From Tubiluchus corallicola (taxonomy: Eukaryota > Animalia > Priapulida): DNA of 64,000 bases. The DNA lies in assembly GCA_030141605.1 (NCBI GenBank), contig JAQGDQ010000089.1, forward strand, positions 186,001 through 250,000. Direction: 5' to 3'. Numbering within the stretch: position 1 is the first letter of the stretch; each line of letters opens with the position of its first letter. The notes below the pieces were generated by a model. It did not search any database, was not told the origin of the DNA, and saw only the letters and a program-made list of their open reading frames with translations. This document shows positions 395 to 62,840 of this stretch, one piece after another. The position numbers and the translations under genes were made by a program.

Positions 395-830
395 CACTGG
401 CAAGGCTAAAGGGAGCAAGGAGAGCAAGTGCTCCCGATAAACACATTTTTTTCAAAATTGACACTTTTCAACAAAGGAGTCATTCAGCACTTTCAACAAA
501 AGATTCATTCAATATTTTACTTGACCAACCTGCCTCCCATGTTTTTGAAATGATCGCGTAACACATTTGTCAAGGTTGACTGATTGAACCAAATCTGATA
601 ATGGTAATAATATATATTTTTGCCAAACGATTGTCTAGACGTGATTGTCTAATAGTACACCCTTTAAATACAGAATAACAATTATGTACTTTCTTCGAAA
701 CTGTATCTTCCTCGTGCTGTTAAATACAAAATTAAAATGCATAACCAATGCGTTAAAAATTATTTGGTATGTGTCACGGCAGCTTTTTTGTGGTTGCTCC
801 CCCTATCTTTAGAACCTATCTACGCCCCTG
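395..830. mobile_element. Degenerate hAT-type MITE with 8-bp TSD (ATATTACT)
   Basis: ATATTACT at 387-394 and 831-838 flanks the element. The right end reads CAGGGGCGTAG on the - strand; the left end CACTGGCAAGG is a decayed match. Subterminal GGGAGCAAGG...TGCTCCC motifs are present. Confidence 0.5.
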
Positions 831-910
831 ATATTACTCAGTTAAAATCAATGAAAACTGCTAACGATATCTGTAACAACTAACAAACGATACTATTGCT
901 ACTGTAACAG

Positions 911-3900
911 ATTTGCTATTTGACCCAATGGATTCAGCCAAGAAGTTACTACGACCACTAGAAAGTGTGCAGGGGTACGATGATGAAATGGACCCTAACG
1001 TAGAAGTCGTCGGGCCTGGAACGTTTGTACCACGAAAGTGTGCGGCAGCAGCTTGGTTATTAGAATCCACAACGATAGCACCAATACCATCGGATGTAAG
1101 TAAGAAAACTGTCCATTGTGCATCAAACAAGAAATGCGTTTAGTTCTGTACTCAACTAATTCCGTTACAACCTCTTATCAAGAAAAGACTTTAACAAGAA
1201 TTGTAACATTAAGAAATCACAAAGTTAAACCTTTATCTGTAAGCAAGAGATGAATATCATAAGGGCTACTTGACTAAACTGTTTGGTATGTAAACACTTG
1301 GTACTTCTGCCTGCTCGCTTTGAGGGAGGACGAAAAAGCACCCAAAAATATTCATAAAAAAATTCAAAAAATCACGTTTGTTTCTTGAAGAACAAGGACA
1401 AAAAAACAAATATATTTTTAACACCCCTCTACTGCTTTGACATCTTTGTTATATTTACTACTTTCTGAATAAAAAGCAGAAAACTGGTCCTTATTAACTA
1501 CATCATAATTTAATAAATCATTACAGTTTATACATACGATATGGTCAAGTATAATCCTACTAATGACTGCAATATTGTTAAGTAAATGAATTCATCATTA
1601 CAGTCTAATTTCTTTAACCACAATTCTGCATTTTACAAGCTAGGATCAGCGCTCAGTGTTAAGAGTCACTAAATGTATATGTTGTGGCGGGACTGGAATC
1701 TAGCAAATTATCAAGGATAATCCTCTATGATCTGACACTGAACCGGCGAAGGTGTGTCAGTCACGTTTGGATGCTATCATGTGTCCACCGATGAATAAAT
1801 GAAGGCCGTGTAACAAATAACACCACCCAGAAGCAGTTTTCCTGGTGCACAGCCACCCATTTCCTGAGTCTATATCACACAACTTTGCAGCCAAACAAAC
1901 ACCCAACTATCTGCCTGATGCCTATAATGTCAAATCTTGTCTTGCAGAAATATACGTACCCGCCTGGATTTATTATTGGAAATGTCTCAACAGAAGAATT
2001 CACTTTTATATATCCGACGAGGGACGCTCCTGCTACAGCTGGTACCACAGGTATGTTTCTCAGCCATCGTGTGACTACCTCTCTTTTGACATGTGGACAA
2101 AATGTACATGACAAAAGAGTAATTTCACCTAATATGCTAATTCTGTTGATTCAATTGGTAAATTCGGTTAACATAGAATTATAAGACGGGCCTAAACCAA
2201 TAAACAAGTTTAGAAATCCCGTGTCCTTTGTATCTTCTTATTCCCCACCAAAAGTGACTAGGAAAGTGAACACCTAAGCACTTTGAATGATGCTGAAAAT
2301 AGGCCTAACCATGAAAAACTGTTTGCCTGTGAAATTGTTGAGCTATTTCATAATGCTAAATGCAACCAAAAGATGACATTCAGTAGCCCCTGGAACTATA
2401 GCAGTTTAGCCTGACTGGCCACCATAAGCTTTTTTAAGAATTTTTTTTCCTTTTTCGAAGTAAATCTGAAAGTAAGGTGGCTTCAAGAACTGCTTTCCGC
2501 ATTTCGGAATGAGTTTTATATGTGTAAATACCGCTTTACCCAAGTTGCATATGATAAAGTTTCTGGGTTCCTTGAGTTTCTAAGGTCTAAAAAGCATTAT
2601 TGTGGAGTAATTGATCTGTAAATTATCTATCTGCACCAGATTAATCGAAGCACAACCTCAAACCTCTTTTGAAGGTTGCAGTGGCCCATACAAAAGCTTG
2701 ATGTGCCTAGGGTGAACTCCTTGATTGTACATGTGATTTTACCTACTTTGTGGGACTATAGGGCTGCTTGTACAACAAAATTAACAGCGATAATTTCAAA
2801 TTTTAAAAAAAAATTAATGTTAATTTCAGTCTGACAGGGTTCCTCCTAAAATGGATGCCCTATGCCACTGCAGGGCATTCTAACAATCCATTCCAGCATT
2901 ATAATTGAGTATAAAATAATGTAAATACACATTTTAAATGCATTCTATAGAGTCATCATATTTTACCACTAATTGACCTACCTGATCAATACAAGCAAAA
3001 CCTCGTAAATGCAGACACATATAATAATAAATTTCAATGCTATAATAGAGCATAAAACTGAATAGATCCACATTTTACTAACAAACTCATTATGTTTTAT
3101 AGTTGCCATCATCATCATCGTTATCTTACTCGTGATTGTCGTCATCTGCATTGCCGTCTATGCATACAAGTCCAATCAGAGCGCCAAAAAGAGGAAGGCA
3201 GAGACCAAAGACCAAGTGCAGGATGAGCAAGAAAAGCAGGCCATGCTGAAACAGAAGACAGCACAGAAACAAGGTTAGTACCTTCAGTCGATGCAGTAAT
3301 TTTCAGTAATTTATTAATAAAATTTGTAAAATAAAAATGACATGCAGCACACTTAAGAAAAGACATGGTTCTTATCCAGACATAACATCTCAATGAATCG
3401 CAACGCCGTTGCTGTAGCAATTTGAGTCGTAATTAGTGGTTTTGGGTACAAATTTTCTCCAAACCTGTCTTGAAGAAGATCTACAACCTAAATTTATTAA
3501 CCTAAATTTATTCAATTCAGAACGGCAAACAAATACTTAAGCAGTGATGGTGAGTACAAAAGATGCCAGATTTCATTACTTAAGATAGTTAATGCACAGC
3601 AGAGATTGCTGACACCGAGGAATGAAGCACTTTTGCAGCTAAGGAGTACAGTCTCATGACTGGACTTTCCCACCAAGTGTTTACAGATGTTGTGTCTAAA
3701 TAAAAGCCATGTCTTTTCTTAAGTGGGTGCTGGCTGTCATTTTTATTTTAAGAATTCGTTTTCCCAATCACCAATCAGTTTCTCAAGTAATAAAATTTGC
3801 TTTGCAAAAACACATTTACGATTTACATCACTAATAAGTTACAAAGAAATTTGCAACATGCTTATTGCTAACATTTGCTTAAAGATAGTATGTTGCAACA

Positions 3901-6900
3901 CAATAGAACAGCAAAATTTCTTAACCTTCCATATAAAACATGTCAAGTCTAACTAGACTACAACCACACTTTATGAACTCGTATATAAGTCGCTGACATA
4001 ATCATAGCTAATATTTTTTGCTTTTCTGTAAATAGATTCTCCTTATCACACCTGATACAAAATGTATTGGAAAACTCTTTTCATTTATGACTCAAGCAAA
4101 ATATAACTACGGGGTTAATTTGCACAAATAATTAGAAAATAGATACGTTTTGCACTATAGGTGATAACAAAATTGTATAATTAATTTAATCCTCAAAAAG
4201 AAATAATAACACTATACTATCCATAACATATGCTTCAAACTATACTATTACTAATTACAAACTATACTATTTTTTGCTGCAAAGACAATGCATATCTTTA
4301 TCAACACAGACTCAGCGACTATGCTAGCAATAATTTTTTTTGTAATTTACATGAAGGATTAAACGTGAGTTTGTATGCTTACTGACGGCATCAAGTAAAA
4401 TTTTGTGTTTACATAAACAATTTTGCCTTTTATGGTATAACAGCTGTAGTCTTAATAACAAAAAGTAGCTATAGATTATAAGACTTCATAATTGCTGTAT
4501 GTGAGAATGTAAAACAGCCTGTGAAATGTCCCCCCTTATAGGGGGTGCTGGCGTGTGCATGGTAAAGTGGGAAACACAAAAGGGGAGGGGTGGGCATTAC
4601 ACAGACTGTATGCAAATAGAATCTGACTCTCCACTTTACCATGAATGCGCCAGAATAGACATCGAACTTTTATAAAAGCATTCTTGAATGCGTGTGTCCA
4701 TTTCAGTATTCTTGCCAAGAATTTTAATTGAACAACAAAATTCAAAATTATCCATCAAATGTGCAAAGAAGCAATGCACAATTGTGTGATTTCTGGGGCA
4801 TGCTGGGAAGAACTTCAATGACTGCATTGAATTATCCTTCCCAGTCGGCCTTGCAGAAGACATTGTTTCCCCAGGGGAATAGGCATTGCCCACTATTTTC
4901 AATACAAAATTATGCCAACATTGTTCTCTCAAATGCTTGACAAGAAAAGTAATTCAGTTTTAACAAATCAATTTTATCACTTCAAATTATCTATACCTGA
5001 TTTTCATATTCGTTCTAGAACCCGCATAATGCCAGACTCATGGTAAAGTGAGAAAGTACAATTCTTTGCACAGAGCTGCCATTAATCTTCCCACGATACA
5101 TCATTTAGCGGGTGGTTACTGTTGGAGATGAAAACCAAACAAGCGCCTGCCTGGAACAGACGCTGCTAGTCATTACTCATGTTTATATGTTAGTAGAATG
5201 TAATGTCTTGTCTTGAACATGCATTTGTGTGAGCCATTTTAATATAATTAATTAGAAATGCTAAAGTTTTTGTGTTTTATCGTTATTTTAATGGAAGATG
5301 CGCTCAAAACCTCTCGCCATCACCTTTTACATAGCACATCTCGACCGAGTCTGTAGCCAGTGTAAGTGGTGACTTAGACTTGGTATTATAATGTATTTGT
5401 AAGTAAAGGTGCTGCCGCATAGAGACTTCAAGCGACATCCTTTATCATAGCGAACTTAATAAATTAATGGCTTCACCAAGCGTGCCTTAAAACAATGATT
5501 GACTTGGGTTGATTGATAATTAATTTACGAACCAAAAGTGCCATACAGAAAATATATGGAAAATTAGAGAATTTACGACTGTAGATTTTAAGTACATTAC
5601 TGTACTTTTTCTGATTCTCATTTAGTAAGGTGAAACGATAAACAAAAAGTTGAAGAAAGAATATGTTCTACTAGCTTTCGTGACATTATGCATTAGAATC
5701 ATAATTCTGTATTATACACATACAGAAAGAATGATATCATGCTTACAACAATTAGCCTTATGGCTGTAAACCAACCAGCCACTTGTAACAGATATGGACT
5801 GCATTAGGATTTGAACCCAGCACCTCCTGCTTACGTGGCAGGTTGCTCTACTGTTTGAGCTACTGGCTCAACCTAGCAGAGGTGGTCAGAATTCCCACAC
5901 ACATATATACCTAAAATGAATATCACCTAGGTCTTATGGCTGCTTAGTTGCCAGGTGTCAAAATGCTTAAATAAAAATTAATGCATAAATTAACGAACAA
6001 CTAATCAAGGGAATTATTTCGTAAATCATTAATTTATATAGATATATACAGATATGCATATTTTGTGTACTTGTAGTGCAGTGAGTAGTTTGTGGCATGG
6101 AAACTAGCATGTAGTTTGATGATAATGCAATTACACAAGTGAAAAATTAGTTTACGTGGCTTTTAATATTTTTAGCATCATTATTAATAATAGTAGAACA
6201 TTCCCATAGACTATCTGACATTTTCGTGTGTTATATGTGTTATAGTATAGAATGCAACATAAGCAAACGTAGCTGGTCTGTAATATTTAGTAAGTACTAT
6301 GTTTCATAAGTTTACTCAGAAATAAAAAGTATATAAAATCATTTTATTGCATATACGAGAATGCGCAGATAATGTCAAGAAATGCATTATTTTTGCTAGT
6401 TTGAAATTTGTAGACTAGTCAGAAAATTGTATTGTAAAGCTACGGTTGTGATAATGTGTTTGGGGTTATTGGGAAACAACAAGAACATGGCTAAAAGCTG
6501 TGACAAGTTATTTGTATATGTGACCCTGTATTTTACTAGCATTGTTCAGTACTAAATTAACAATTAGATCTTTTGCCCATACATGTTTAATGTATGAAAT
6601 GTCAGCACGAGTTTTCCAGTTACCATATACTAGTAGTACATAAATTTCATGCAAATAAATTCTTCGACATCTACAAAACTCACGTAGCGACGACCTAAGT
6701 TTAAAATAAATGTAACTGTGAAGACATCCTTGGAAACCTACCACATACACAGTGTACAGTTCAATACCTATGACAACTGTTTACTTTTTGAGTTCTCACT
6801 ACCTTGCTAATGTTTAAACACTCATAACTAGTTAGTTTTATGAAAACTCAGTAAACCGTTAAACCAATGCTAAAATTCCTGTCTATATTTTCTTAAAAGG

Positions 6901-9900
6901 GTATTTTCTGCATTTGAATGAATAAACAAAACTGAATATTTACAGTGTTTGTTGTAGTTTAAATATGACAATATCAAAATTACATAGAAGTTACAAACCT
7001 TAAGAGGTCAACACTGGGCTACACTTCCAACAGATGTGAGATCTGAAAAAAATCATTAATTTCACGAAATCTTTAGACAATGAAACAAAAAGCAAAATGA
7101 TGAAAAGCTTTCCTCAAAGCATTTTTGCATTAACCCTAACACAGTCAATACCGTCACTTGCAAATGACAAATTAGCAAATTGTTGTTAAACAATTTTTAC
7201 AAAAACATGCTTTTTGGTCATTTTACAACTTCAAACAGAAAACTATATAAAAAAAGGTCGCAATGCAAAGTGAGTTAGTCAATCAATTTTGTTGCCAAAG
7301 CAAGACTGTTAACTATCCTGGTATGATAATTAATAGAAGTAGTTAGGTAGCTAAGTACACACTACTCCACATTACAATCAAAGAAAACAAAATACTGAGC
7401 AATCCATATTGATGAAGACGACAGATGACATGTTTTTTCATACTCACTGATGAATTTGCATTAGTAGAAACGCATTTAAGAATCACTTTCATAGTCAGAA
7501 AACAGCCAGACCAAAAAGTCAGCTTTCATTTTTTGCCTAATTACATGTGTTATTTATAGTATTATATGTTGCATAAGAAAATGTGCCACTTACTAGAAGA
7601 ACATAATTTTAAAAATTCTTATGCCAAAATGGCAAGAAACAAAGACATTTTAAATTACAACTTTTTTATACCACAGTTGACTAAAGAATCTAAATATTTT
7701 ATCAATGTTTTACCTATCCTTTACCTTTGCATCCACTACTACTACCAGGTGACATTAACAGCAATGTTCATATCGAGAATGAACGTGACGCTGATCCAGA
7801 TGACGGAATCGAAATGAAGCCATTGATGAAAGCAGAAAGTGACAACACTATGTTAACACCCAAACCGGATGAGCAAAAACAGCAACCGTTTGGAAAGCAG
7901 CAACCGTCAAGAGAGATGGAAGAACTAAGAACTCCAAGTTACTGTAGCAACCAACCAGGTTAGATACCTTTTAACAATTCTCTCACTGTAAATGGTGAAA
8001 AATTATCAGTCCCATTATAATGATCCTCTGCAAACAGTTTGCACAGAGCTTTTATTTTCCACTTAATTGAAAATTAAATTCAACTAGAATGCATATTAGT
8101 ATACAAAACCTTTGTAGCTTAATTGGTTAATCACTTGTGCTATCCAGGAGAGCACCAGTTCAATACCTTCCTAACCCTTTTTTGCACACTCAATCAAATA
8201 TTTCACATTTTCCTCCGCTTCTCCTCTTCTTTCTGCAACCTAAGGTTAAGTTCATGGATTGATGATACACATGCCACGGTGAATTGTAGTGGTAGTAACT
8301 GAGTAAGGCAAACCGATTTTCGGTTACCAATTACTAGTAAGTAGTAACAAACCGATTCTCGCTAAAACATTAAAACTAAATAGGTCTGCTTAGCTATATG
8401 TATTACTGCAATGTAGCCTGTGCCCTATATTGTTCAGTGATGAATAAAACTTGGTTAACACACTTTATTTGTCCTGTGTTATTACACTTGTAACTGCCAG
8501 TCGTAAGTGATACGTAACTAATTGCTGTAGTTGTTACTAATTGTTTTAAGTTTTGCACAACTTTTAACTACACTTTATGCTACAACATCAACTGCCGCAT
8601 AATATTTGTTACATGCTTAGTGTGTTTTTTGCCTATGTAACTAATAACCTTGTTATGTGTTTATAGAAAAAGGCATACTGGGCATACCAGTTGATCCAAA
8701 TGCAAACATATATGATGATGCGCACCCAGTACCAAGCAATCAAAATACTGCAGGTATAACCCAATTGCTCATGATCGACTTACAAGTTATCACAAAATTT
8801 GTCAATATGTCCAGACTCTTATACCATTTGCTCTCATACACATGACCCAGATGGTTACTCTTTCTAGCAAAAAGAAGTCCATGCATTTCTGGTCCACTCA
8901 ACTACCAGTGTTCATTAAGACACTTATACATTAATACAAAATTGATTCCAGTCCACTTAACTTTAATCAAGTATACTCGACATGAAAAAAAATCACAAAT
9001 CTATATAGCTAATGCTGGGAATCATGCTGAATGTTCATTACAAAATTAAAATACGTAATTTATGCTCCTGTTAGCAATTAAGGTAACAACATACCTAGTA
9101 GTTACCTTCAGGCTGCATTAGTATATAAGCCTACAATAAGTCCTACACAGTAAGGCCTATACAGTCCTGGATGAAAGGGCACTAGTGTATTTCAGCAAAA
9201 TGTACAATTATGGCACAGCGCATCAATTTAGGTGCTTTCGTTATGCAACACAGCACTATTCGTAATTTGATGCTATGTTCCCCAATTTAAGTCAAGTGGC
9301 GTATTTAATAACTTTTACTTCAGAACATCTAAATATGTGATTAATTGTCCTCATCTTGGTTTCTTCCCAGGTATTGGTGCTTGATGTAATGCTGTAGTAA
9401 GTGGAGAATCCTACAGTAATCTGATGACGTGTCCAATCCATCTAAGCCGATACTTGTGTATGACCTCACTTCATTCCTCTTTCTTTGCTAAAACATATAA
9501 ATCCTGATTTGAAATTTTCTTTGGCCATTTTATACCCAGCAGTATTCTGTACAGACGTCTTTGGGTTTCATTCTTCTGGGCAACTTTGACTGTACACAAT
9601 TCAGAATTATACAATACAGGTTCTACATGTAGTGTAGTTTCTACGGTTAGATTCAGATTTTCAAAAATGTTATGGGCTTAGAATATGCAGCCAAAGCTAA
9701 TATTTTTCTGCATGGTATGTCAGCTTCAGTGCCTAGTAAAATACCAAGGTATGTGCAATTCTTCCAAGACGTATCCCCAACAAGTTGTATTGACTATTGT
9801 GTATTGTACTGTTGGCGTCATTTATCTTTAGATTGAAGTTTCTCACCTTCGCGGTGAGTAAACCCTAATTTCCGTTTCTTACACCGATCTCTGATTCACC

Positions 9901-12900
9901 GATAGAGCCAAAAGCAACCTTGTCGAGTTATTCGTCGTTGGTTTACTCTTCTCCTAATATGCCAAATTGGTATTAAAATAGACTGTTTCTCGCACGGAGT
10001 TCCACATCAGGAGACTCAAAGGAGATCCAGATATTGCATAATTATGCTCTTGCTGAATAGTCGGATTGAATTTGGATCTAACATTGTGTACATATGATCT
10101 ACAGGCTGTGCAAGTAGCATGTACGCATGCTATTAGCAAAATTAAAAATTAGTGTAGCCAGCAAGGCACGAAATCTTCCTGATCCTCTGATTTTTGGACT
10201 GTATTGGACAAATACGGCACACCCGCTGCACCGCACTGTTAACGAGAGCTTGTCTTTTGCAAAATAGTAATGTGATTTTGATCTGTTTTGTTGGTTCTGA
10301 AATGAACAATTGACGGAACAGTTTGGAATGAAAGCAAGCTGAACCACACTAAACTATTACAAACAAGGCATAATCAGTAAGCCTAGAGTCTCTATAACTC
10401 TATCTGTTGTGAACAGAAAGCCTTCACTATTTGATTCATGCTCCAAAGTCGTTTATTCTAAACAGAATAATAAAAAGAACATTAACAAGTAAGAAAATGA
10501 ATAAAATGATAAACTGAAGCTCAGTAAATACAAAGAAGTCAACTTATTGGCAAAGTACTTTCTCAAACTTGAGAGATTGAATTCACAACTTAATTAAATT
10601 ATTCAAATTGATGTAACTCACATCGTTGGCTCTTCGTCAAGATTTAAAATTTCTCAAGGTACAAAATTCGGTTATGACTAAACGATGTTATTAAATGTAA
10701 CACAATAACGACAAAAACATTGCTGTGATAAAAAAAACACGACCACCATTGTTCCCCTCCTGTCCTTTCCTCCTCACTCGTAGAGGGCAGCACCTTCCAA
10801 TACATAGGTGTCGTTATGCATATTGCCGTTACACTCCCCCTCTAAAATGCGAAGTCACAAAGCATTTTACCAAAAATTTCCAGTAAGCAGTTAGTCGGCA
10901 CCCTCTAGAAGACAGAGCTTGTGAATGGGGCGCTCTAAAAATCCAGCTTTCACTTTAAGTGTAGCACTTCTCACTAACCCATCTTCGCCTACATGAACTT
11001 GCTCTACCTTGCCCAGTGGCCACAGATTTCTGGGTGTGGTCTCCTTCACAAGCACCACATCATTGACTTTGAGATTTCTTTTTGGCACAGTCCACTTGTT
11101 CCGTTGCTGTAAGGATGACAAGTACTCTCTGGTCCATCTGCTCCAAAAGACATTCACTAAGTGTTGAATGTGTCGCCACTTGCGTCTGTAACGATCAGAC
11201 TCAGAAAACACTCCTCGTGGCAGTGAGGCAGCATTGTGAGCTAAAAGCAGATGATTTGGTGTCAATGGTTCTGCATCCTTTGGATCATCTGAAATCGGCG
11301 TTAACGGCCTTCCATTAATTATTGCCTCCGTTAAACAGAATACAGTGGATAATCCTTCATCATCAAGGGTCTGTCCATCTAAAAGGTGGACCAATATCCT
11401 TCTGACTGATCTTATCATCCTTTCCCAACAACCTCCCATGTGTGAAGCAGCTGGTGGATTGTACTCCCACTCTATGTTACGTTGATGTAGCTGACTAGTG
11501 ATGTTCTGATGGTTCCAGCCTAACATAGCTTTTTGAAGCTCCCTGTCTGCTCCAACTATGTTTGTCCCATGGTCCGACCTGATCACATTTGGCTTTCCCC
11601 TCTTGCTAATAAATCGGAAGAGGGCATTAACAAAGTTATCAGTGGTCATGTCAAAAAGAACTTCTAGATGAATAGATCGCACTGCCATGCACGTAAATAA
11701 ACATCCATATCTCTTAGCAGATGTGCGCCCTCTCTTTACACAAAAGGGCCCAAAACAATCTACCCCCACTGAGGAGAATACTGAATCTCTTGAAATCCTA
11801 TCGCTGGGTAAGTCAGCCATCTTTTGGCCCAGCGTGGGTGCATACAAATGTCTGCACCTGCGACAGTCCTTTATAGCCTTTCTTGCGATAGTTCTCAGTC
11901 CAATGATCCAAAACTTGCCTCTGACTACAGACATAGTGTAATTGCATCCAGCATGGCAGTTTTCCTCATGGTAGTGTCGGACAACTAGGCGAGAAAAAAC
12001 ATGGTCTTTTGGCAGTATTATTGGGTGCTTAGCTTGTTTAGCTAAAGGAGCTTTGGCTAGTCTGCCTCCAACTACCAATATGCCTTTATCTGATTTCTGA
12101 GGGTCCAATTGATACAAATGACTGGTTTTGAGTACATTCTGTCCCGTGAGCTCTTCTTTGAAGTGTATGTACTGCACATGTCTAATGATTTCTTCCTCAG
12201 CCTCCATTAGTTCCTTCAAAGAAAGGGCAGTGTGCTTTGACATAGTACGGACCCTCTTAAGTACTTTGTCTCTCAACAATCGTTTCAGACGTAGGAGATA
12301 AGCTACACATCTTTTTAGCCGATGCAGATTTGAATAATGCTCACACAACATGTCGATGACATTATCATCCTTTTCTACTGCTTTAGACGTGTAGACCACC
12401 ATAGGACTTTTCTTAATTTCGGAATCATCTGAGACATCTTTGCCTTTGATACTATCACCGATCTTTGGCCATTGCTCTCGCTTGCCTTTCAGAAATGTGG
12501 GGCCATTTATCCACCTGCTTTCCTTCACCAGATCTAATGCTGCAATTCCCCTTGTTGCATCATCTGCTGGATTGTCTGCTCCTGGTAGGTGATGCCATTG
12601 TTGTGGTGAAGTTAGTTCCTGAATGACAGCCAAACGATTGGCAACAAAGGTTTTATACCTTGCAACTTCATTATTCAAGTAGCCTAATACTATTGAGCTG
12701 TCCGTCCAGAATATGGATTCATCAATGTGCATGTTAAATTCCTGTCGTAATATGTGATCTACTCTAGCTGATAGCATGGCTGCAGAAAGCTCCAGTCTGG
12801 GAATTGTCATACCCCTCATAGGTGCCAAGCGTGATTTGCCCAAGATGAAGGAGACATGTACTTTTCCATCGTTGTTCTCGAATCGCACGTAGGACACTGT

Positions 12901-15900
12901 TCCAAAGGCAACTTCTGATGCATCACTAAAATGATGCAATTGAGTGTTATTTACGGTCCCAAAATGCTCTGGTTTCAAGCAACGAGCTACCATCATGTTT
13001 TCCAGTGTCATAAGCTCTTCTTGCCAAACTTTCCATTTTCTGGCAGTGTGCTCTTCCAGGGGTTCATCCCATGCCTTTCTTAGGCGGGTTTCTTCCTGGA
13101 ACATAAGCTTGGCACGTAGAACAAAAGGAGAAATTATGCCTGCAGGATCATAAACTGATGACACCACACTTAGTAGGCCACGGCGAGTCAATGGTTTTTG
13201 TCTTTGGTTTACATGGATTTTGAACTGATCAATTTCCATGTCCCAGAAAATTCCTAAGGCCCTTTCTACTGGCAAAGTATGTGCTTCTAGATCCAGATTC
13301 TTAACACCTTTGCCCCGCTCCTCTTCTGGGATGGACTCAAGGACACTTCTACTGTTGCTGCACCACTTAGTTAAACGAAAGCCACCTCGAGCCAATAGAT
13401 CAGTCAGTTTTTGACGCATGTGCTTGGCTTTCTCTTCATTTACAGTTGAGGTTAGGCAATCGTCAACATAGAAGTCTTTCAGCAGTGTCTGAATTATGTT
13501 TTCATCATACAAATGCCGGTTATGCTTTGCAACGCTTTGGAGTGCAAAGGCTGCAACACTTGGACACCATATTCCACCGAATGTGTGAACAGTCATTCTG
13601 TAGACCTTTGGTTCCGTGTTTAAACAACCATTTTCCCACCATAAAAATCTAAGGACATCGCGATCCTCTGCAGGCACCTTCACTTGGTGAAACATGCATT
13701 CAATATCAGCCATCAAAGCTATTTGGTTTTCTCTAAATCTAAGCAAAACACCGATCAGTTTATTTGTTAAAACAGGACCCTGCATAACGTTCCTATTTAG
13801 AGTAGTACCTGCGAATTGAACTGCACAATTAAAGACGATTCTCGTTTTATCTGGTTTGTTTGTATTTCTGACTGCAAAATGGGGCAAATACCATATCTTT
13901 CCAGGTCTTCCATTAACACCTTTGGCATTTATTTCCTCAGCATAACCCTTATTCAGCATATTTGAGATTTCTGCAGTATACTTCTCTAGCAATGCATTGT
14001 CCCTTTGTAACTTGTTCTTGAGCCCCTGCAGCATAGACTGTACCACAGGTAAATTGTTTGGAAGCTCAGGATTCTCACTTCGGAATGGTATGGGCAATTG
14101 ATAGTGATTATCCTCAGTTAGGGTTACTGAATCCTCCCACAATTTGATCACCTTGACATCTTCTTTGGAATAATGATTTTCGTCTTCACACATTTCCATC
14201 TGCCAAAACTGGGCGACAATGCTGTCAAGATCTGCAGTGGCTTGGACATAGTTACTGATGATTGCTTTGCTGCTTGTGTACCCTATTGGCCCATTAAGAG
14301 CCCACCCTAGTATAGTCCTGGATGCCCAAGGAGCTCCTCGTGGCCCTGTTCTGACCTCTAATGGAATCATCGCGATAGGCACATCCTGACCAATCAAAAG
14401 CCCCACTTCAGGTTCTCCAAAACCGCCAGAGGTCAATGGTATGTCCTGCAAGTGTGGCCATTTTTTTAGGTCTTTCAATTCTGGCAGAGTTTCTCCCTTT
14501 AATCTTAGTGAAGGTCTGGTGTACACTTCAGGAAGCGTTATGCATTCATCTTTTTCCATGCTCATCACTTGCAAACTCACCACCTTGGCTGTAAATTCGC
14601 TATTTTCCCTTTCCAAAGTAGTCAGTGATAAGGCAACATCCTTTCCATCTACGCCCAATTTAGCGGCTAGCTCCTCAGTGCAAAATGTATTTGTGCTACC
14701 TGAATCCAAGAAAGCCAGAGTCTCGAGTGGCATTCTTTGTTTTTGAGATTGTACAAGAACCTTTACAACGGGTAAAATAATCCTTTTGCGCACTGTATAT
14801 CTTTCAACATAACCATTTTGGACAGAACACTTGCTGCTAGCTTCTCTCATATCGCTATCTTCATCATCCTGCCTGCCTTGCTTAAATTTACTCAGGTGTA
14901 AGAAAGTGGAATGGCTTCTTTGACAGACATTGCATCTTTTGCTCATACGACACTCATAGCTGCTATGATTGGGCTTTAAACATTTAAAGCAAAGTCTCTT
15001 CTCTCTGGCTAGCTCCAGTCTTTCTTCAGGCTTCATGGCATTAAAGTCTGCACATTCAGTTATAAAGTGTTCACCAGTGCAAATGCTACACGTAGATCTC
15101 TTCGATTCGCCTGCTATTTTAGATAAAAAACTTGTTTGGTAACTTGCTTTAGCATCCTTTCTTGTTGTGAGTTTCTGGGTTTCCTTTCTTTCTCGGTCGA
15201 TATATCCTAAATTCCCAAAAACTGGATCATTTGCCTCTAAAGCTGCTGTTTCCACAAAATGAACTACATCATCAATCGTTGGACTCCTTTCTTGGCTCAT
15301 TCTAATTTTATATGCCTCTGTCTTCCACCTTGTTTGGAGATAAATTGGGAGTTTCTCAAGTATACACAAAAGATTTGTTTGGTTATTTATTTCTTCTCTT
15401 TTGTTAATACTGGCCAGTATTCCTTGAGCCATTCTCAAGTCATCTGCAAAATGCATTAATTCTTCTCGGCCCTTAACAGCCTTCGTTTCTCTAATCTGTG
15501 TTAGCCAAGATTCAACTATGTTGTAAGAATTCCCAAACCGCTCATAAAGCATCTTCTTCGCCTTTGCGTAGGCCTCATTAGGAGGCATGAGCAAGCAGCT
15601 TTCCACCACCTTTCTTGCTCTTCCTGTACAATAATGTAGTAAGCGCAGAAGATTGGCATGACTATCTACAGAAACTCTCTCTACTGCATGTTCAAAAGTC
15701 TTCATAAACAGATGAAACTTTAATGGGTCTCCATCAAAATACATCATCTCCACCTTAGGCAAGCTTGCACTTTCAGAATTTATTTGCCGACTTATTTCTC
15801 CTGTGTGTGTTTTGTTTCCTTCGCTGTGAGCATGACATACATCGTCACATCTATTGTCACAACCACAACATCGTGTTGAGATTGGTGCACTTCCTTGAGA

Positions 15901-18900
15901 TGAATGATTTGGCTGTCTCACTGCTTCTTCACACATTTCAACCCACCGCTTTGTCTCATCCCTTTTATATGCAAGCAAAGATGGGAGTTCCTTCTTTTCT
16001 TCTTCTTCTACTTTCTCATCGACTTCAAACTTGGCGAGCACCCTTTCTTCAGCTTCCAGCATTTTAATTTCAGCTTGTTCTTCCAATTCGCTCATTTTCA
16101 TTTGATACAATCGCTGCTCCTTTTCTGCCTTTGCTCTTCTCTGATATTCACAAAGCTCAAGGTTTCTCATCTTTTCCATGATGGATGCCTTTGCTTGTAA
16201 AGCGGCTCTTTTTGCTGCTACCATGGCCCGTGCACTGGCAACACTGCTTACGCTTTTATAGCTGAGCTTTCCGCTACTCCCAGCAATGGAATGGTTGTCT
16301 TTACTATGTGACTGGTCGTGTTCATCCTGGATGGGTTTTAGACAAGAATTTATTTTTGCGTGCATTTCATTAACGTTTCCCATGACAAATTTATATCCCT
16401 CTCGCATCTTAGCAATCTCATCAGGGGTTCCATTACATTCCCTAACAGCTGCGTAACAATCTTCAAAGGAATTTTTGTAGTCTGTAACGATATTTTCTAA
16501 TTCAGCTTGCTTTAAAAGGAGCTCATCTTGCTTCCATTCTTGTAGATTTTTCATCAAGTAATTTATCTTTTTTGTTAATCGACCCTGCTGTGTACTTAGT
16601 CTTCTTTTGCATTCCTGTAAATATGCTGGGCAATCGTCACCCCCTAATGTTTGCTCCTTGTCGCCTTGTTCAACTGACTTTTCGAAGCCAATTGCCTCGG
16701 CTGAGAGATCAGTTTTTGGCTTGAAGAGATCCTTTTCCATATTTTGTCTGTTGACGTTGTGCACTTAAAACCTGCTCATTCTGCTTTGTTACCAAGCAAC
16801 ATTAACATAAGCTATATGATACACACTACATAAGCATTAAAAATTACAATCCTATTGTACTTAAATGTACATGTATCATTCTAAAGCTATAGTTGCTATT
16901 TGTACTTAAAACTTATCAGACGCTTAAAATGAGGCATAAATCCTAAGTTTCACCAAAGTTATTCAAACTGTCATTAAATACCCGGATTCTACGTGCCGGT
17001 AAACATACAAACATACAGACACCGTGTATCAGCAAACCTATGGCCTTAATATGTAGACAAGAACTTTACCACAGATCTCACACTTTAACATAAATCGTGG
17101 CTTGGTATAGCAGCAGTTCACTTACCATGTATTAATGTTATACCGATTAAAGAAAACGTAATTATTAAATTAAACCCCATATTGCAAATTAGTTCAACAT
17201 TCAACCATGCTTTCTGTTGAGCTTTCACAGGCTTAGGATAATGCTTGATTACGCATTGTAGATTATGTTGGGTAACTTAGTAGATTTTCGAATTTTTTAA
17301 GCAGGTACAGCACGGTGTAAATTTTGTCAAAATGAGCAGTCGATTCAGAGTTGTTCACTGAAAACATTTGACACAACGCAAACATTGCATAATATCATAT
17401 TTTCGAACTTCAATAAACTGTACACAATAAGTACCATATCTTTAACTTGCTTCGATTAGATCAGCTGATGCACGGCAGCGTGGGAGTTTACTACTTGGCT
17501 GGATTCCAGCAGGTCTGTTTACATTCGCCGTATCTGTTGCGGTTCATGTTACTAGTTCCCAGGGCTCCTTAGTTGAAGCTGTATATCATTGGAAGACAAT
17601 CGCGTGCGCTGTAGCTCGATGAAGGTTCACTGGGAGTCAGGTTCGCCCAGAGTACGTTTCTTCCTGACCTCTGCAAGGTCGCCTGCGTCACAGGCTTGTG
17701 TTCGATATTGATTGGTTGCTCGCTGCACGGCATTCACTACATTTACTACGTCGCACCGGTGTGTAAGATGCTGATTGGCTGTTCGTCTGGACAGTGAAGC
17801 AGGTTACTAGGACTGCCTGTAAAATGTTGCTGGAAGAGTAATTTTCAAGGCTTAGACAGCTTTTTACTGACGATTATTGTCTTTTCAGGCAATGATCTAT
17901 TGTCCAAAATTATGCCACCAGGTTCTCTGGTATCTGGCCTCCTCGTCGACTATAATACTGTTTCTCGTAACACTGGCATAACAAATAGATTTATTCGCAA
18001 ATAATGATAGAATATTGAAGTGTACTACAGCCATGGTGGAAGAGCCGATAATAAACTGTTGTGAACAGAAAGCCTTCACTATTTGATTCATGCTCCAAAG
18101 TCGTTTATTCTAAACAGAATAATAAAAAGAACATTAACAAGTAAGAAAATGAATAAAATGATAAACTGAAGCTCAGTAAATACAAAGAAGTCAACTTATT
18201 GGCAAAGTACTTTCTCAAACTTGAGAGATTGAATTCACAACTTAATTAAATTACTTAAATTGATGTAACTCACATCGTTGGCTCTTCGTCAAGATTTAAA
18301 ATTTCTCAAGGTACAAAATTCGGTTATGACTAAACGATGTTATTAAATGTAACACAATAACGACAAAAACATTGCTGTGATAAAAAAAACACGACCACCA
18401 TTGTTCCCCTCCTGTCCTTTCCTCCTCACTCGTAGAGGGCACCACCTTCCAATACATAGGTGTCGTTATGCATATTGCCGTTACACTATCTCTATGGTAA
18501 AAATATTTTGTCGTGTAAGCATGCAGCTTGCAATTGTCCCACTTTGTCCCATAATCCCATTCCTTGTTTTATAAGGCCGTTTTGTAATTATAACTTGATA
18601 TTCTCATGCTTATAAAATTTAAGTCTAATAGTTATTGTACATTGTACATTTAGCAGACCGTCAACTTAGTGATTCTTCAGAAACCCTTTCTTCAACTTCT
18701 TCTTCATCACATGATGAGACGAAGCCAGTCATCCATCACGCAGAAGTTGAGAATGACCAGGATCCACCTGAAGATTTGGAATGGGACCCAACTGACAGTA
18801 CAGAATTACTAAATGTAAAGTTTAAAAATTCATGCTATTATTATAATATTCTATTGCTAAGCATGTTATAATAAGAAATATTTGGTATAATAATTTAGAT

Positions 18901-29600: not shown

Positions 29601-32600
29601 TCATTGCTTTAATTATCATAATCTTAATTTCAAACTTACTATTAATGAAGCACAAACCCACAGTTAATTAGACGTTGATATCAAACTTGATCTACAGAAA
29701 TGTTAAAAGTTGGGATACCATCTGGATTTGAATTATGGTATGCTGAATTTGGTTTCCCAGCCATAAAGGATGAACTTTGGATTGATTTAATCACTGGGAT
29801 AGAGTAGCCTCGTGATCTAAGGTGTCTGTTTGTAAGCAGAAAGTCCTTAGTTCAAATCCAGGCCGTATCTCAGCTTTTTTGCATTGCCTACCTTTGAAAT
29901 TCAAAATTTATTTAATGGTGTGTTTTACATCAAATTATTGAGTTGTCTGCCGTACATTTCAGCTGATCCAATACCAAGAATAGAACCGCAGTTTCTTTAC
30001 ATGACGCCTAAGCTTACGGTTGGGCTTCTCGACGACGATTTTGAAATGAAATGCATCTTTGGAGGACAGTATGTATTGTGCTATCTACAGGGGCAAACCA
30101 CTTGAAAATGGACTAAATCATTCTAAATTAAAATATGTGTAACATAGAAAATTCAATTTAAAAATTTTATTGCATCTGATACAATAAATCTTTATTGATG
30201 AGATGCAGCAAAGTTATTTTTAAAATTGCATTTTCTCTAAAATCTTTGCCTGATGCATAGAAGTTTTTTATCAAGTGCAGTTAAATTATTTACATAAATA
30301 AATTTTGCTGTATTTTCTGTATTTTTCTGGTATTTTCTGCTGTCAATAATGCAAAACTTCTGATTCCGTGCTTCAGTAACTCCATTAATTAACGCATGTA
30401 TGAATGAGGTGATACAGCCATTGTTTGCAGCAACAACTGTAGATAACTGTTTATTGATGTTTGTGATAGTAAATATTTAAATATTTTTCTCTCGTGGCAT
30501 ATCAGTTTTATCCATTTCTATACAATCTGTTATAATGGTTAAGTTAATCTTTTGGTTAGACGTTTGGTACTTCAATTACCTTTTGTTTATATTATCAGTC
30601 CTGTGCCAAAGTATGAATGGAGACGACTAGGCACTAATCTCTTGCTACCAGAGAACCGCCACGTTTACCAGAGTTTCGGTCAATCGCTGATCATTCGAAA
30701 TCTGCAGTTCGAAGACGCTGGAGAGTACGAATGTTCGGCTAGCAATGGTCAAGGAATTCCGAAGAAACGTAAAATCATTCTGTCTGTTCAATGTGAGTAT
30801 ACTGGTCTGCTAATTGGTGTATTTTTTCAACTGCATTCAACATTTGTGGCTTAGCTTTTCATAATAAATGCTGTTAATTGTCTGTACCGCAATTTAAGAA
30901 TACTATATATAAATTTCACATGTTTATTTAATCATTGCTTGTTTTGTTGGATTTGTGTTAGAAATTTTATATCAAATATAGTAACGTTAGTTTTCTACTG
31001 TCATTTGCAACATTCTCAAGACATCATGTTTCGTAATAGAAGTGGTTAAGGCCATAGAAATGCCATTCTTTATGAGAAACGTTGCTTTTTTTCAGCGCGA
31101 CCATATTGGATTGAAAAACCCGAATCTCGTCACGCAGGACAGGGTGATACGGTGCAGTTCATATGCCGTGCTGGAGGAACTCCTGAACCAATTATCAGGT
31201 TAGTGAGTTGGAAAGAATAGTTGTTAAGTTTCAAGCTAGTTCTGCTCTTTTGTATAATATTCGATGTTATGGTGTAGTTTGGAGAGAGAAAGAGGATGGA
31301 AGAGAGACAGAGAGAGGGGGGATGGTGTCTAGGGAGAGTTGTGCTTCACTGTTTTCATCGACATATTTGTTAAGTACAGTCAGCCTTCTTCAAAATTGTG
31401 AGTTTTCTCTAAAACTGTCGAAAATCCATATAAATTGAAAATAAAGTGCTTCTTTGTAATGATTCTCTATTTCTCTAATAATGTTATAGGTTTGTTTTCT
31501 GTGCCTCTAATTAGTTTAACTCATTCTTTTTTAAATATTTTGCCTGATGTTTTTGCAAAATCTGTTTTATTACGTTATAAAAAAGAATCCTGTATGCAAA
31601 AGCCATTATTATAATAATAGATCGTCGAAAATGGTGCCTTTATAGGAGATATAGCCCCGTCAGTTATATATACACCCATATACCACCGAAATTAATATAT
31701 AGATAACAAAATGAACAGCAGCAGTGTCTGATGTGTGATTCTTTACAGCTTTTAAATAAAATCTGTTTTGCTTAGATGGTACATTAACGGTAGAGCCGTA
31801 TTGGCTGAGGCACCCCGGGAACAAGTCACCAACGAAATTATACAAAGTTATTACTACATTAACGATGAGTTTGGCGGCGCTGATGAAGATAGCATTGAGA
31901 CAAAGGCGAAGAAGCTGAACAAACGCTGGTTAATCAACCGTAACAATTTCACTATCTACAACCTGGACAAGGAGCAGGACACGATGGTGATACAGTGCAA
32001 TGCCAGTAACATCCATGGCTACATCTTTCAAAATGCATTTCTCAACGTTTTGGGTATGTTGCAGAAATTTCTTATTAGCGATAAGTAGGTACTTACAAAC
32101 AAAATTTGCACTCTTTTATATAGTTGTTACCCATACGCGTCTAACAAACCAACAGACATATACAAAAAAAAACTGAATTGGGAATTTTTTGGCAAATCTG
32201 AATTGATTAGAATCAGTGCTCAAATGCCCAAGGTTAAATATCGGTATCATATTGAATTGGATATACCATTATTGAACAACTCTGTTCAGTACTTGTTCTG
32301 GACTGTTATATTTGCCATATATAATGAGGTTGTATTCACAATTGAATGCTTAGTCACTTTTGCTGGTTTATTAGTGAGGGACATTCAGATCTTACAAACA
32401 ATCTATATTAAGTAGTAGGCACAGCGCGGAGTGCAGTATTATGGATTACAGTATGCCAAATTGTATATAAAGTACTGTAATGTTCAGAAAGTTCTTCCCT
32501 GTCTAATTTTAGCATTATACTGACTGTACGATATTAATTCTAGTACTATGCTGTTGCCAGATTTTGTAAGTTTTATAAGTTTAGTAATTGACAATTTTAA

Positions 32601-35600
32601 ACCTGCGCAGCATTATACTTTACAGTTTTAATAGGAGTTTTCATTTTGCTTAGCCGAAGCACCTGTGTTCCGAGAGGAACCACACCCTCTGTACGAATTC
32701 ATTGAGGGTAACGTGGGAGTTATTCACTGTGACACTTTTGCTGCTCCACGTCCGATAACACGATGGTTCAAAGACGGAAAAGAGCTGACTGGTGGCCGGT
32801 TTGATATGCAACCGAACGGAAACTTACACATTGCCAGGGTCTTATTTGATGACGTCGGAAGCTATATGTGCTTATCGTCAAATAAATATGGCACGATAAA
32901 GGTGAAATTTATTGTAACAGTAATATAACTTTTTTATTTTATCAGTATAGTTCCAGGAGATTATGTTACTTTTATGTCATGAGCGATCCTAGCTTACAGT
33001 ATTCATTTTGTTAACTGAATTTCTTTTCCAGTTCATATTTATTGAAGAAGGAAGTCTTTATCTTGTAATTTATATACTTGTGTCATTATCGATTCTAGTA
33101 AATACTTATATGTGCTACCACAGTAGTCTCCCACTCTCATACCACAGTAGTCTACTACTTTCATACCACAGTCTACCATATGATGTGCTACCACCCTCTA
33201 GTCTAGTCAGCAAATGGGTGGATGACCATCCGGGCAATTTTTTCTGCTGTTAGCTACTTTCTCATGAGAGAGGATTTAAATGCATCGAGATAGGATTAAG
33301 CTTTCTCTACCAGTTAGTTCTTCCTCTAAGGATTATCCATGATAATTAGATAATCCAGATCCTCGTCCTTCTCATTCACTGCCATAGATATTTTTTGTTC
33401 TGGTGTTGTATCAAATTCTGAAACTTTTGAATAGTACTTGAATGGCTTTAACATGGCTAATTGAGCCAAGGTTTTTAAAATTTTGACCTGTAGTATATCC
33501 ACAATTTTACTTTGTAAAAAGTGGTATCATTTGGCATGTCTACTTATGTTGGTCGGTAATAGAACATTTTGTTTATTAATATTTATTGTTTGTCTGCTCT
33601 AGGGCACCACTCAGGTTGTGGTGAAACAAAAAACTAAGATATTGAACAGACCACAAGACCTGGAAGTGCGGAAAGGAACAACGGCAACGTTCAGGTGTTC
33701 AGCCGTAGCCGACAAATCCGTTCGACTTGTTATAGGTACATTTTTATTATGCATTCCATTCAAATCTATGACATCCAAAGCATGCTGCCCAAAAGAGTAG
33801 ATTGGACATTAATGTTGCAATGAGTGATTTTGTCTTTTGACGGCTCACCAGAATCATTTAAGCCAAATTTGTATGCGTAAATTATAAGAAATATGTAATC
33901 ATTTGGAAAAAATATCGTTATCTGCAGGAATGGAATTCTGTTTTTACCTTACTTGCTACCTGTGTTATGATGTGTAACATAAGCTTTATGTTGGTGTGGT
34001 TCAATTTTTTCTAAACATTATGCCAGTTTAAGTACATGTGACAATGTTGAAATAAATATTATTGTTTTTGTTTGAGCTGTATTGCACTTTCATTTGAATT
34101 TTTATTTTCATGATCGTTTTCCTACTCTTTCCAACACCTTCCCAACACCTTTTTCTTGAAGAAGCACTAATAGTCATACACCAATCATAAATAGACTGCT
34201 TTGACTTATGGTGCTTCTCAGATTGCACTTTCTTCATAAAACCATCAGCATGTAGTGTGTTGTGTCAGTCACACAATTTGCTTAAAGTAAAGAAAGCAAA
34301 TTCAAAGAGATGCAAGGCTTGAATCCATAACCCATTCATCATGAATCTGGGCTCAATTTTACAAAGCCATCATTATTTCAACGACATCGTTATTAATAGT
34401 TTAGTGAATATAATAATGATGTTGCTAACTTAGTGATGGCTTTGTGAAACCGGCCCCAGGTATCTAATCAGTCTGGTCAAGTTTCACTGAACATAATGAA
34501 GCTATGCACAACACTAACAGTTGTTTTCTTTGTGGTTTTAGAGTGGCAGAAACATGGTGAAGATATCAACTACGCACTGTCACAGAGAATAATAAAGCAT
34601 CCATTGGATAACACATTACTCATCACCAATACGCTAGACGATGATACAGCTGATTATACCTGCATAGCAACCGCGTACAGTAAAAAACAGGGCGATGATG
34701 TTGTTCTGGATGTTGTCACGGCAACGGCCAACCTCACCGTCCAAAGTAAGAGGACAGATACATTAAGTTAAAAGATTAGCTTATTTGATGTCCAATAGTT
34801 TGTTTTGCTTAGTAAAATTTGGTTTCTTATTTTCAAAAAATTATTCATTGCGTTTGCAGTTTTCAAGTTCGTCGGTATAATTGAAATAATTCATATTTTT
34901 CCTGTTATTTAAATTTGTGCTCAAAATTTTAGTGAATTTGAAATCATTCTCTTATTACGTTTGCAATTTGTAGTAACTAATTGCTGTTTAATAAGATAAG
35001 AAATTATTTTTTTGATTTGAAATGAAATAAGAGAGCAGGTATTTCTCGGAAAGGTATGATTGTAATTTACTGTATTTTAATAAGACCTATACTGGAATAC
35101 ACTTGTCCTGCATGGCGTACTTCTTTAACATTAGAACAAACAAAATGAGTAGAGTCAATCCAAAACCATATTTTAAAATCAATTTTCCCCTGCACTCCTT
35201 ATGTAAATACTTTGCAGCTGTCTAAAATTGAATATTTATCTGTTTGTATAAATGACACTTTGCAGAAATTTTTTTAAGTCAATCCAAAATCAAGATAGCA
35301 GACTCCATTATTTGTTACCTAAACGCAATTCTCTTAACCGCAATCTTCGTAAGCCGATGATGTCCCTTATCCTTTTTGCCTTACTTTTAAAAATAGTTTT
35401 ATATCATATATGCCATATGCACTTTTTTATTATCAGTAAGTTTATTACTACTGTATAAATTGTGATACCGAGTTAATCGATTTTAATAAGATTAATCTTG
35501 ACCTAAATTATTGCCTTTTTAATGTAATGTAATTTAATTGTAATTTAAACACCAATGTATCTTAATTAATGTAATATAAGTTATCCTTCAGGTTACAAGA

Positions 35601-56687: not shown

Positions 56688-56898
56688 GTAAGTTGTGTAA
56701 TTATAGACATTTTATAACATAACTTATAATGGTTTAAGTTTGCATTGTGCCAGCCCTGAACGAACTATCTACAGTACTATATAGTACTCTGACTCTTGAG
56801 CAATAGCGTAGCTTGGTGAAGATATTATGCAATGTTCTTTGTTTTCATAAGAGTTTTTTCCTGTTTGTCTTTGGGACAGAATAGTGTTGAATAGTGCA

Positions 56899-57392
56899 GT
56901 TATTTTTGTGGAACCTACAAAATGTGGGATTGTTGATTTAACCTGTTAAAACACCGTCCCTGCAAACTTTTTAACAAGCCTCATTATTAGTTACTTTTTG
57001 CTTTTCTAAAAGTAAATAATATTTAAAATTGCATTTGTGAACACAATCTAGTATTCATAATTTCGTTTGAATTGATTTCATAATTTTCTTACTTCCAGAG
57101 ATCTGCTCAACTTCCTACTGTGTAACTAGCATTGTGTTATGTGATGTTATTTTTGTGGAACCTACAAAATGTGGGATTGTTGATTTAACCTGTTAAAACA
57201 CCGTTCCTGCAAACTTTTTAACAAGCCTCATTATTAGTTACTTAATGTTTTTTTAAAAGTAAATAATATTTAAAATTGCATTTGTGAACACAATCTAGTA
57301 TTCATAATTTCGTTTGAATTGATTTCATAATTTTCTTACTTCCAGAGATCTGCTCAACTTCCTACTGTGTAACTAGCGTTGTGTTATGTGAT
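56899..57392. repeat. Recent 247-bp tandem duplication (2 copies)
   Basis: 56899-57145 and 57146-57392 are nearly identical, with only a handful of differences. Confidence 0.92.
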
Positions 57393-61957: not shown

Positions 61958-62840
61958 AATAGTAATTTATTCATTTTTGAAATCTTCAGATCATAGGATT
62001 TTCTTAAGTGAAGTAGCTATTTGTGTTCAGGCCTTCTATAATAGCCTAATGGATTTTGGTAATTTTTCAAAATCGCTTCTGGGTTAAACTGATGGTCTGT
62101 TTGTAATAATTTTTTTCTTGTATTATAGGACCCCTCAAAGGCTCAAACATACACAACAACCGTTTACAACTGGAAAACTGTATTTATACAGATGATGTAG
62201 TTTATTTAGAAAATTGAAAGTATTACAACGAAAGTAGAAGCTGTAGTAGACAGTAATTTTCCCAGTTTGCCCTTAATTCGTAATCATTTTCATGTAGCCG
62301 AAAAATGCCAATTTTTTCTATGGAATCAATGTGACTCCGCTTTTCAGTGTCGAGCGAGGATCTTGGATCAGGGAACGACTAGCCGGTCTATTGTCACATT
62401 TGTCAGGACTTATTGTCCAGCGGATCTTTATCAGGGTATTTCCGCAAGTTCTGTTCCGGTCATCTTATATTAGAGATTTTCTACAGTTCTTTTGCGTTAA
62501 GCAACCTTCCTTTAATCAACTCCTCGACTGCGTTTTATCACACAAAGCTTAAAAAGTTTCATCCGGTGGTAAATTGTAATGCTTTCAGTTTTCTAAATAA
62601 ACTGCACCATATGTGTAAAATACAGTTTTCCAATTGTAAACGGTCGTTGCGTATGATTAAGTGAAGCCTACTATATAAATAGTCGAAGGAATCCATTATT
62701 ACAAACATCTGTCCATCCGTTTAATGCAGAAGTAATTATGGAAAATTACCAAAACACATTAGGCAATAGAAAGCCTGAGCAATACAGCAGCCATTTCACC
62801 AAAGGAAATCCTACTCTCTGAAAATTTCAAAAATGAATGT
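61958..62840. repeat. Diverged inverted repeat pair (~270-bp arms, ~350-bp spacer)
   Basis: The reverse complement of ~61958-62228 aligns by eye with ~62575-62840. Shared blocks: TGTAAT.CTTTCA.TTTTCTAAATAAACT, TACAGTTTTCCA.TTGTAAACGGT, TTATTACAAACA, AAAATTACCAAAA, TTTCAAAAATGAAT. Confidence 0.7.

Follow-up and report, generated by a model that had tools for sequence, protein, structure and literature searches.

The window analysed here, a 64,000-nucleotide stretch of a Tubiluchus corallicola contig (JAQGDQ010000089.1, positions 186,001 to 250,000), carries on its minus strand an LTR retrotransposon of 8081 bp with BEL/Pao-type proteins. The element is young, its two LTR copies differing at 3 positions, and its parts are collected in Table 1. 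Within its gag-pol frame the domains are arranged in the order DUF1759, RVT_1 (below the curated cut-off), Peptidase_A17, Integrase_H2C2 and DUF5641, and the same domains are present in the best protein matches. Named relatives, sharing 50–56% identity in the RT-RNase H region, come from echinoderms, molluscs, cnidarians, a priapulid, a crustacean, a hemichordate and a fish; a search of a viral contig collection returned no relative.

Table 1. Features of the BEL/Pao-type element, in coordinates of the window
Feature	Position	Strand	Remarks
5′ LTR	18057..18485	minus	429 bp, TG...CA
3′ LTR	10405..10833	minus	429 bp; differs from 5′ LTR at 3 positions
Target-site duplication, 5 bp	18486..18490; second copy 10400-10404	minus	
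Polypurine tract, 10 nt	10834..10843	minus	
Single open gag-pol frame, BEL/Pao-type domains	10891..16764	minus	1957 codons, stop to stop
Putative exon 1 end, 5′ arm of the predicted primer	18274..18287	minus	11 paired bases, 3-nt bulge; prediction
Putative LTR intron, 164 nt	18110..18273; 3′ copy 10458-10621	minus	GTGAGT donor, U-rich tract, TAG acceptor; sequence signals
AATAAAC, first 7 nt of exon 2 and predicted primer 3′ arm	18103..18109; 3′ copy 10451-10457	minus	
Remaining exon 2, 46 nt	18057..18102	minus	U/GU-rich stretch, predicted stem-loop, 2 candidate cleavage CAs
Primer-binding-site position, 18 nt	18039..18056	minus	no TGG start; complementary to spliced exon junction

According to the ICTV definition, Belpaoviridae have LTRs of 0.2–1.2 kb, a genome of 4.2–10 kb and an 18-nt primer site that pairs with a tRNA-Arg or tRNA-Gly at its 3′ end (PMC8742986). 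The element agrees with the description of the family in size (429-bp LTRs, 8081 bp in total), in its proteins (RT before integrase, Pao-type domains, one gag-pol frame) and in its polypurine tract of about 10 nt (10834–10843). It departs from the description at the primer site, which lacks an initial TGG and is complementary to the exon junction of the element itself, and in having a putative intron within the LTR. Because there is no tRNA-Arg or tRNA-Gly site, we call the element BEL/Pao-type on account of its proteins and do not regard it as a textbook member of the family. ARAGORN found no tRNA gene within the 64-kb window, and an Rfam search gave nothing near threshold.

The initial annotation had pointed out that an AG acceptor abuts AATAAA in both LTRs, 46 nt before the LTR end, and that the complement GTTTATT follows the 5′ LTR alone. 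These observations are borne out. The acceptor AG, preceded by a U-rich tract, ends at LTR position 376 in both copies (18110 and 10458), and the hexamer adjoins it at 18109–18104 and 10457–10452; the LTR end lies 47 nt after AATAAA or, counted from AATAAAC, the 46 nt noted before; and GTTTATT is found directly past the 5′ LTR only (18056–18050). Each LTR holds one A(A/T)TAAA, the AATAAA adjoining the acceptor, and it is probably the real poly(A) signal. CA dinucleotides that begin 11 and 18 nt downstream of the hexamer (18092 and 18085) are candidate cleavage sites. In a contig comparison from one run, among the 40 of 42 rows listed, no difference fell on the donor, acceptor AG or hexamer, this comparison being the sole source for conservation of the hexamer within the family. 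The three LTR differences had been suggested as tags for assigning 3′ ends to one LTR, but we had to drop them: one is at 18442, close to where the LTR begins, the other two are at 18256 and 18254, within the intron, and because none falls in exon 2, spliced or short 3′-end reads are unassignable to either copy. The two differences spaced two bases apart at 18254–18256 create a weak GT donor-like site present only in the 5′ LTR.

Taken alone, the seven-letter match is compatible with the absence of any splicing, the AG, the hexamer and the complement being chance neighbours in AT-rich DNA. A complement of this length turned up by chance in 868 of 20000 shuffled LTRs (~4%), and the unspliced 7-bp duplex is weak (−4.8 kcal/mol). 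Removal of the 164-nt intron, on the other hand, produces an 18-bp duplex with 18056–18039 that contains a 3-nt bulge and reaches −24.2 kcal/mol. This pairing is the best of the 339 GT-AG pairs in the LTR, and the pair picked in this way, by energy alone, carries a consensus donor and a U-rich acceptor. Not one of 5000 shuffled primer sites attained the pairing of the spliced junction. Moreover, the duplex terminates exactly at the LTR boundary, so that cleavage behind AAC would yield a 3′ end from which copying of the LTR end could begin, a layout known from Tf1 and Tf2. An alternative acceptor at 18166 and other donors in the LTR gave worse pairing. We also considered free exon 1 as a primer and rejected it, because the conserved exon-2 arm of 4–7 nt would be left unexplained. 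Among 148 contigs of one run, which contains the stretch and may come from the source sample, none was listed as joining across the intron; as contigs drop rare forms, we do not count this as evidence. A search of sequencing runs listed no RNA data set with the stretch, a result that has no bearing on expression.

The same arrangement is present in relatives. A metagenome scan retained 68 loci, representing 51 families, from 636 confirmed stretches; many of the loci share record prefixes, so that hosts are unevenly sampled. For 11 relatives the LTR end could be set by comparing both LTR copies (in L064 the 3′ copy stops at the contig end). Seven of these 11 have a junction match of 10–15 bp in which the donor chosen by pairing only is GTAAG, in L049 an 11-bp junction match involves the 3′ copy, and L038, L040 and L065 have an unsplit match of 10–12 bp. 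The unsplit matches, at LTR ends set independently, were reached by 18, 8 and 33 of 5000 shuffles; the regions concerned are L038:565-940, L040:896-1370 and L065:1684-1890. The sister of L065 is a family with the intron, so that the intron may have been lost or gained repeatedly. A blind scan for unsplit primers in the 26 remaining loci yielded unusable noise (9 matches, against 66 in 520 shuffles) and was abandoned.

The blind scan for split primers covered 48 loci whose upstream DNA was long enough, another 20 being left out, and found matches in 17 of them, belonging to 13 families, versus 9 of 480 shuffles; many of the 31 loci without a match in this strict scan have part of the LTR missing from the contig. 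To the 13 families we added L015 as well as L032, L045 and L047, which were first picked by eye and then confirmed under relaxed scan settings (for each, 0 of 200 shuffles). This makes 17 relatives, or 18 families with the window element; for 9 of the 17, including L001 and L042, the pairing itself was used to place the LTR end. Across the 18 families, the run of pairs between a family's own junction and its own primer site is 10–16 bp long (mean 11.9), whereas cross-family runs average 3.1 over 306 pairs; runs of at least 10 bp occur in 20 of the 306 cross pairs, all among five related families. The paired arms of the primer site begin with GTT in 15 families and with ATT in the other three, and TGG is found in none. 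Given this start, the AAY end of the primer is fixed, and so are two letters of the hexamer. Pairing alone picks consensus donors and acceptors in many distant families, which makes a chance juxtaposition in AT-rich DNA scarcely credible.

The duplex, its position at the LTR edge and the AAY 3′ end are kept in all 18 families. Because these common features are the ones a primer needs, we take the duplex to serve mainly in priming, and its conserved role across families is most likely the priming of reverse transcription. Our main reading, to which we assign a probability of about 0.6, is that AATAAAC is a poly(A) signal and at the same time constitutes the last seven bases of a primer built by splicing in the 5′ LTR, priming being the main task of the duplex and burial of the hexamer a secondary one in a minority of families. 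Against this reading we count the short overlap predicted for the strand jump, about 12–19 nt. Several relatives have a primer-site word that presumably resembles a tRNA T-loop, and such a resemblance would suit a different explanation, namely that a host tRNA or some other RNA does the priming and the junction duplex is a structural signal for packaging, export or translation control. The tRNA priming listed for the family by ICTV (PMC8742986) agrees with that explanation as well, but the absence of a TGG start from all 18 arms, the variation of the arms in step with their own junctions and the fixed AAY end at the LTR edge, exactly what a primer needs, render it highly improbable.

Self-priming has precedents among LTR retrotransposons. 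Tf1 and Tf2 have, past the 5′ LTR, a site able to pair with RNA that derives from the LTR of the element itself, and RT has been proposed to free the primer by cutting (PMC4600332, PMC5341516). The Tf1/sushi group of self-primed Ty3/gypsy elements, including Tf1, Tf2 and Tj1, likewise lacks a tRNA site and has a primer site matching its own RNA. The window element would work like this group without being a member of it, having Pao-type domains and none of the Tf1/sushi chromovirus proteins. There are further differences. In Tf1, the mRNA supplies the primer with its 5′ end. In the window element, the match to own RNA appears only after predicted splicing; its putative primer is split by an intron and would exist only in spliced RNA. 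Furthermore, in the window element and two relatives, the 3′ arm of the primer coincides with the poly(A) hexamer, unlike in Tf1/sushi. In sushi LTRs, AATAAA has been described, in the part of the source available, as unusually near the LTR end (PMC3601003). By eye, a second word like the exon-2 arm can be seen about 40–80 nt before the LTR end in L005, L006, L029, L049, L051 and L064; by analogy with Tf1, it may belong to a second helix.

How widespread is the association between the primer and the poly(A) signal? An A(A/T)TAAA follows the acceptor within exon 2 in 15 of the 18 families, window included, compared with 2.05 expected, and for this reason the hexamer is probably a working poly(A) signal; in the hexamer-bearing families it lies 24–121 nt before the LTR end. 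Three families have no hexamer. In 12 of the 18 families it is located 11–126 nt downstream, outside the duplex, and is predicted to be partly open (unpaired probability 0.14–0.78). Fusion of the hexamer to the acceptor is confined to three families, namely the window element, L001 and L042. L001 has a fused AATAAAC within a 16-bp duplex whose exon-1 arm is different; in L042, ATTAAAC faces GTTTAAT, a compensated change on both strands that still leaves a valid hexamer. The LTR ends of both were inferred, and the L001 intron was read across overlapping contig ends. Fusion in two of the 11 other 7-nt arms has p ~0.01 given the fixed AAY, provided that the families are independent; four further letters of the arm must fit (1.4% each time). 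This recurrence hints that burial of the hexamer matters more than a mere side effect would.

The initial annotation had proposed a stronger role for this burial: the duplex would mainly serve to bury AAUAAA in the 5′ LTR, cleavage factors would win in the 3′ LTR because acceptor and hexamer overlap, and priming might use another route. The fold model upholds the burial as such, the predicted probability that the hexamer is unpaired being 0.00–0.02 in the spliced 5′ RNA and 0.82–0.99 in the spliced 3′ copy, though not burial as the main function of the duplex. The switch is further favored by the recurrence of the fusion in L001 and L042 with a wholly different exon-1 arm and, in L042, with a compensated change that preserves a valid hexamer. 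It also has a parallel in HIV-1, where a polyA hairpin over AAUAAA represses the 5′ site, as stated in the accessible part of PMC2645353. That hairpin is local and present at both ends, whereas the strong duplex predicted for the window element is long-range, confined to the 5′ end and dependent on splicing.

Several observations speak against the switch as the function of the duplex. In 15 of the 18 families, the duplex is maintained although no hexamer lies within it. In addition, a poly(A) mask need not end 0–5 nt from the LTR edge, nor need it pair 4–9 nt of exon 1. Folding of the unspliced AU-rich LTR RNA did not separate the 5′ from the 3′ LTR: the surroundings fold alike and the hexamer is paired in the same way with the U-rich intron, so that in the fold model it is paired in the spliced 5′ RNA and in both unspliced copies. 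The duplex can form only after splicing and requires bases 48–65 nt past the hexamer, when cleavage and downstream elements are already present. Finally, the element contains nine more A(A/T)TAAA words at which read-through occurs with no duplex of this kind, although the first of them is likewise predicted as paired. We therefore consider the switch quite unlikely, while burial of the hexamer as a second use of the duplex in a minority of families, as opposed to the 5′/3′ switch of the whole group, is plausible.

The proposed behavior of the 3′ LTR calls for separate comment. Steric overlap between the factors of the acceptor and those of the hexamer is plausible at zero distance. Our literature search, which took in the accessible parts of PMC2874999 and PMC5546720, found no test of such an overlap. 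Instead of competing, U2AF/U2 bound at an acceptor normally stimulates 3′-end formation (PMC5546720, in the part available), and the coupling of splicing to cleavage needs the acceptor but not the removal of the intron (PMC3737548, likewise in part), findings that run counter both to the competition suggested earlier and to the switch built on it. Together they fit a polyadenylated 3′ end that retains the intron, with no need for strict competition.

Nor does the element have the nearby splice donor that had been invoked by reference to HIV-1. In that virus the distance from the 5′ hexamer to the downstream donor is 195 nt, whereas in the window element nothing comparable is found at ~200 nt, the nearest downstream consensus donor being 984 nt away. 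In foamy virus the donor is upstream of the poly(A) signal in both LTRs, and suppression is mediated by U1 and does not need splicing (for both viruses, the available portion of PMC3694450). The donor of the window element is similarly situated 164 nt upstream in both LTRs, which makes foamy virus a closer model than HIV-1. Control of the foamy-virus type also involves a fold, specific to the 3′ end, that conceals the donor. Foamy virus differs in that the acceptor of the window element is also inside the LTR, adjoining the hexamer, and in that no self-primer is described for it in the portion available.

The likeness to foamy virus leads to an explanation that accepts splice-built priming as real but regards the fusion as a by-product of a shortened exon 2; the 5′/3′ choice would then depend wholly on U1 at the LTR donor and on nearness to the promoter, burial adding nothing. 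In line with this, the donor is upstream of the hexamer in 15 of the 15 hexamer-bearing families, and foamy virus suppresses its 5′ site in this very way, independently of splicing (PMC3694450, in part). Exon 2 is indeed short in the fused families (30, 53 and 87 nt versus 51–250 nt; one-sided p = 0.016), and the AAY end is already set by the primer. The three fused families sit on long branches, all within one starred 7-row half of the 21-row tree, and the AU test does not reject a single clade, in which the fusion would have arisen once (p-AU 0.123). However, four letters beyond AAY must still fit each time, and a fusion of single origin would have survived terminal branches of 0.5–1.0 changes per site while the exon-1 arm turned over. 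On balance, we find this explanation rather unlikely. What seems more likely is that early read-through of the 5′ LTR rests on U1 at the upstream donor and on promoter nearness, with the duplex acting as a later lock.

If priming is indeed the main task of the duplex, the replication cycle might proceed as follows. Splicing would first remove the 5′ intron of the RNA, an event probably helped by nearness to the cap. The spliced junction would pair with the 18 nt past the LTR, covering AAUAAA, and RNase H would cut after AAC, as in Tf1, so that the freed 3′ end could prime at the LTR edge. RT would then copy the 46 nt of exon 2 from that edge. At the other end, the 3′ LTR would retain its intron, with cleavage about 11–18 nt past the hexamer, and the strand jump to the RNA 3′ end would use the overlap of ~12–19 nt, after which the unspliced 3′ LTR would be copied. 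As the junction lies within the primer and would never be copied, the new LTR would inherit the intron from the unspliced 3′ copy. Relatives without an intron could have arisen from accidental splicing of that copy. A more far-reaching version, which we offer tentatively and with some doubt, is that one seven-letter word performs three splicing-gated jobs. Splicing at the 5′ end would build the primer and hide the poly(A) signal, thereby licensing both read-through and priming, while at the 3′ end poly(A) machinery seated on the exon start would keep the intron for every new LTR, such a design being kept in at least three deeply diverged families.

According to ICTV, BEL/Pao replication is poorly understood and tRNA-primed (PMC8742986), and in the available parts of two BEL/Pao papers (PMC554778, PMC3118150) we found no mention of PBS, tRNA or splicing. 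A literature search, whose reach did not extend to subscription journals, supplements, Repbase and GyDB, where earlier remarks may exist, found no account of a primer assembled by way of an LTR intron; within the same reach, including the accessible parts of PMC3601003, PMC8220671 and PMC6934838, it found none of a hexamer fused to an LTR acceptor. If true, our main reading implies a widespread group that uses the host spliceosome to build its primer, representing a new start of reverse transcription, with transposition hinging on one splicing event. It also offers a possible answer to how identical LTRs can act differently, as only the spliced 5′ copy would hold a primer. The three fused and 15 unfused families provide a natural comparison for the value of hiding a poly(A) signal in the primer duplex. 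Elements of this kind will be overlooked or wrongly scored by annotation tools that require a tRNA site.

The 1.3-kb leader (16740–18056) has features of its own, including CCAAT boxes at 17778, 17715 and 17592 and a strong donor at 17125, possibly reflecting, as far as such motifs can tell, an internal promoter and a second intron. The leader also contains another AATAAA (17995), which is missing from a diverged sister contig that covers 17793–18084 (29 other letters and 34 gap letters). The sister contig also differs at 18023, 18026, 18034 and 18037, with no listed difference inside the 18-nt primer site. On the plus strand, the primer site itself reads AATAAA (18050–18055), and at 17865–17888 there is an acceptor-like site with a branch-point-like word that is altered in the sister contig. 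In one run, contig depth over the LTR (18054–18497) is 716–7518 compared with ~49–125 over the interior; this is summed depth and not copy number, and the deep LTR pile hints at many solo LTRs or a short non-autonomous relative. Elsewhere in the window, the plus strand at 30543–43277 contains exons for Ig and fibronectin-III domains of a host adhesion-molecule or receptor gene. Tandem and inverted repeats occur at 46689–47185, 56894–57387, 43649–43744, 61969–62838 and 3321–3756. These five places comprise a 31-bp tandem array, a 247-bp tandem duplication, a 5-bp microsatellite and two long inverted-repeat pairs, the last of which look like small DNA transposons.
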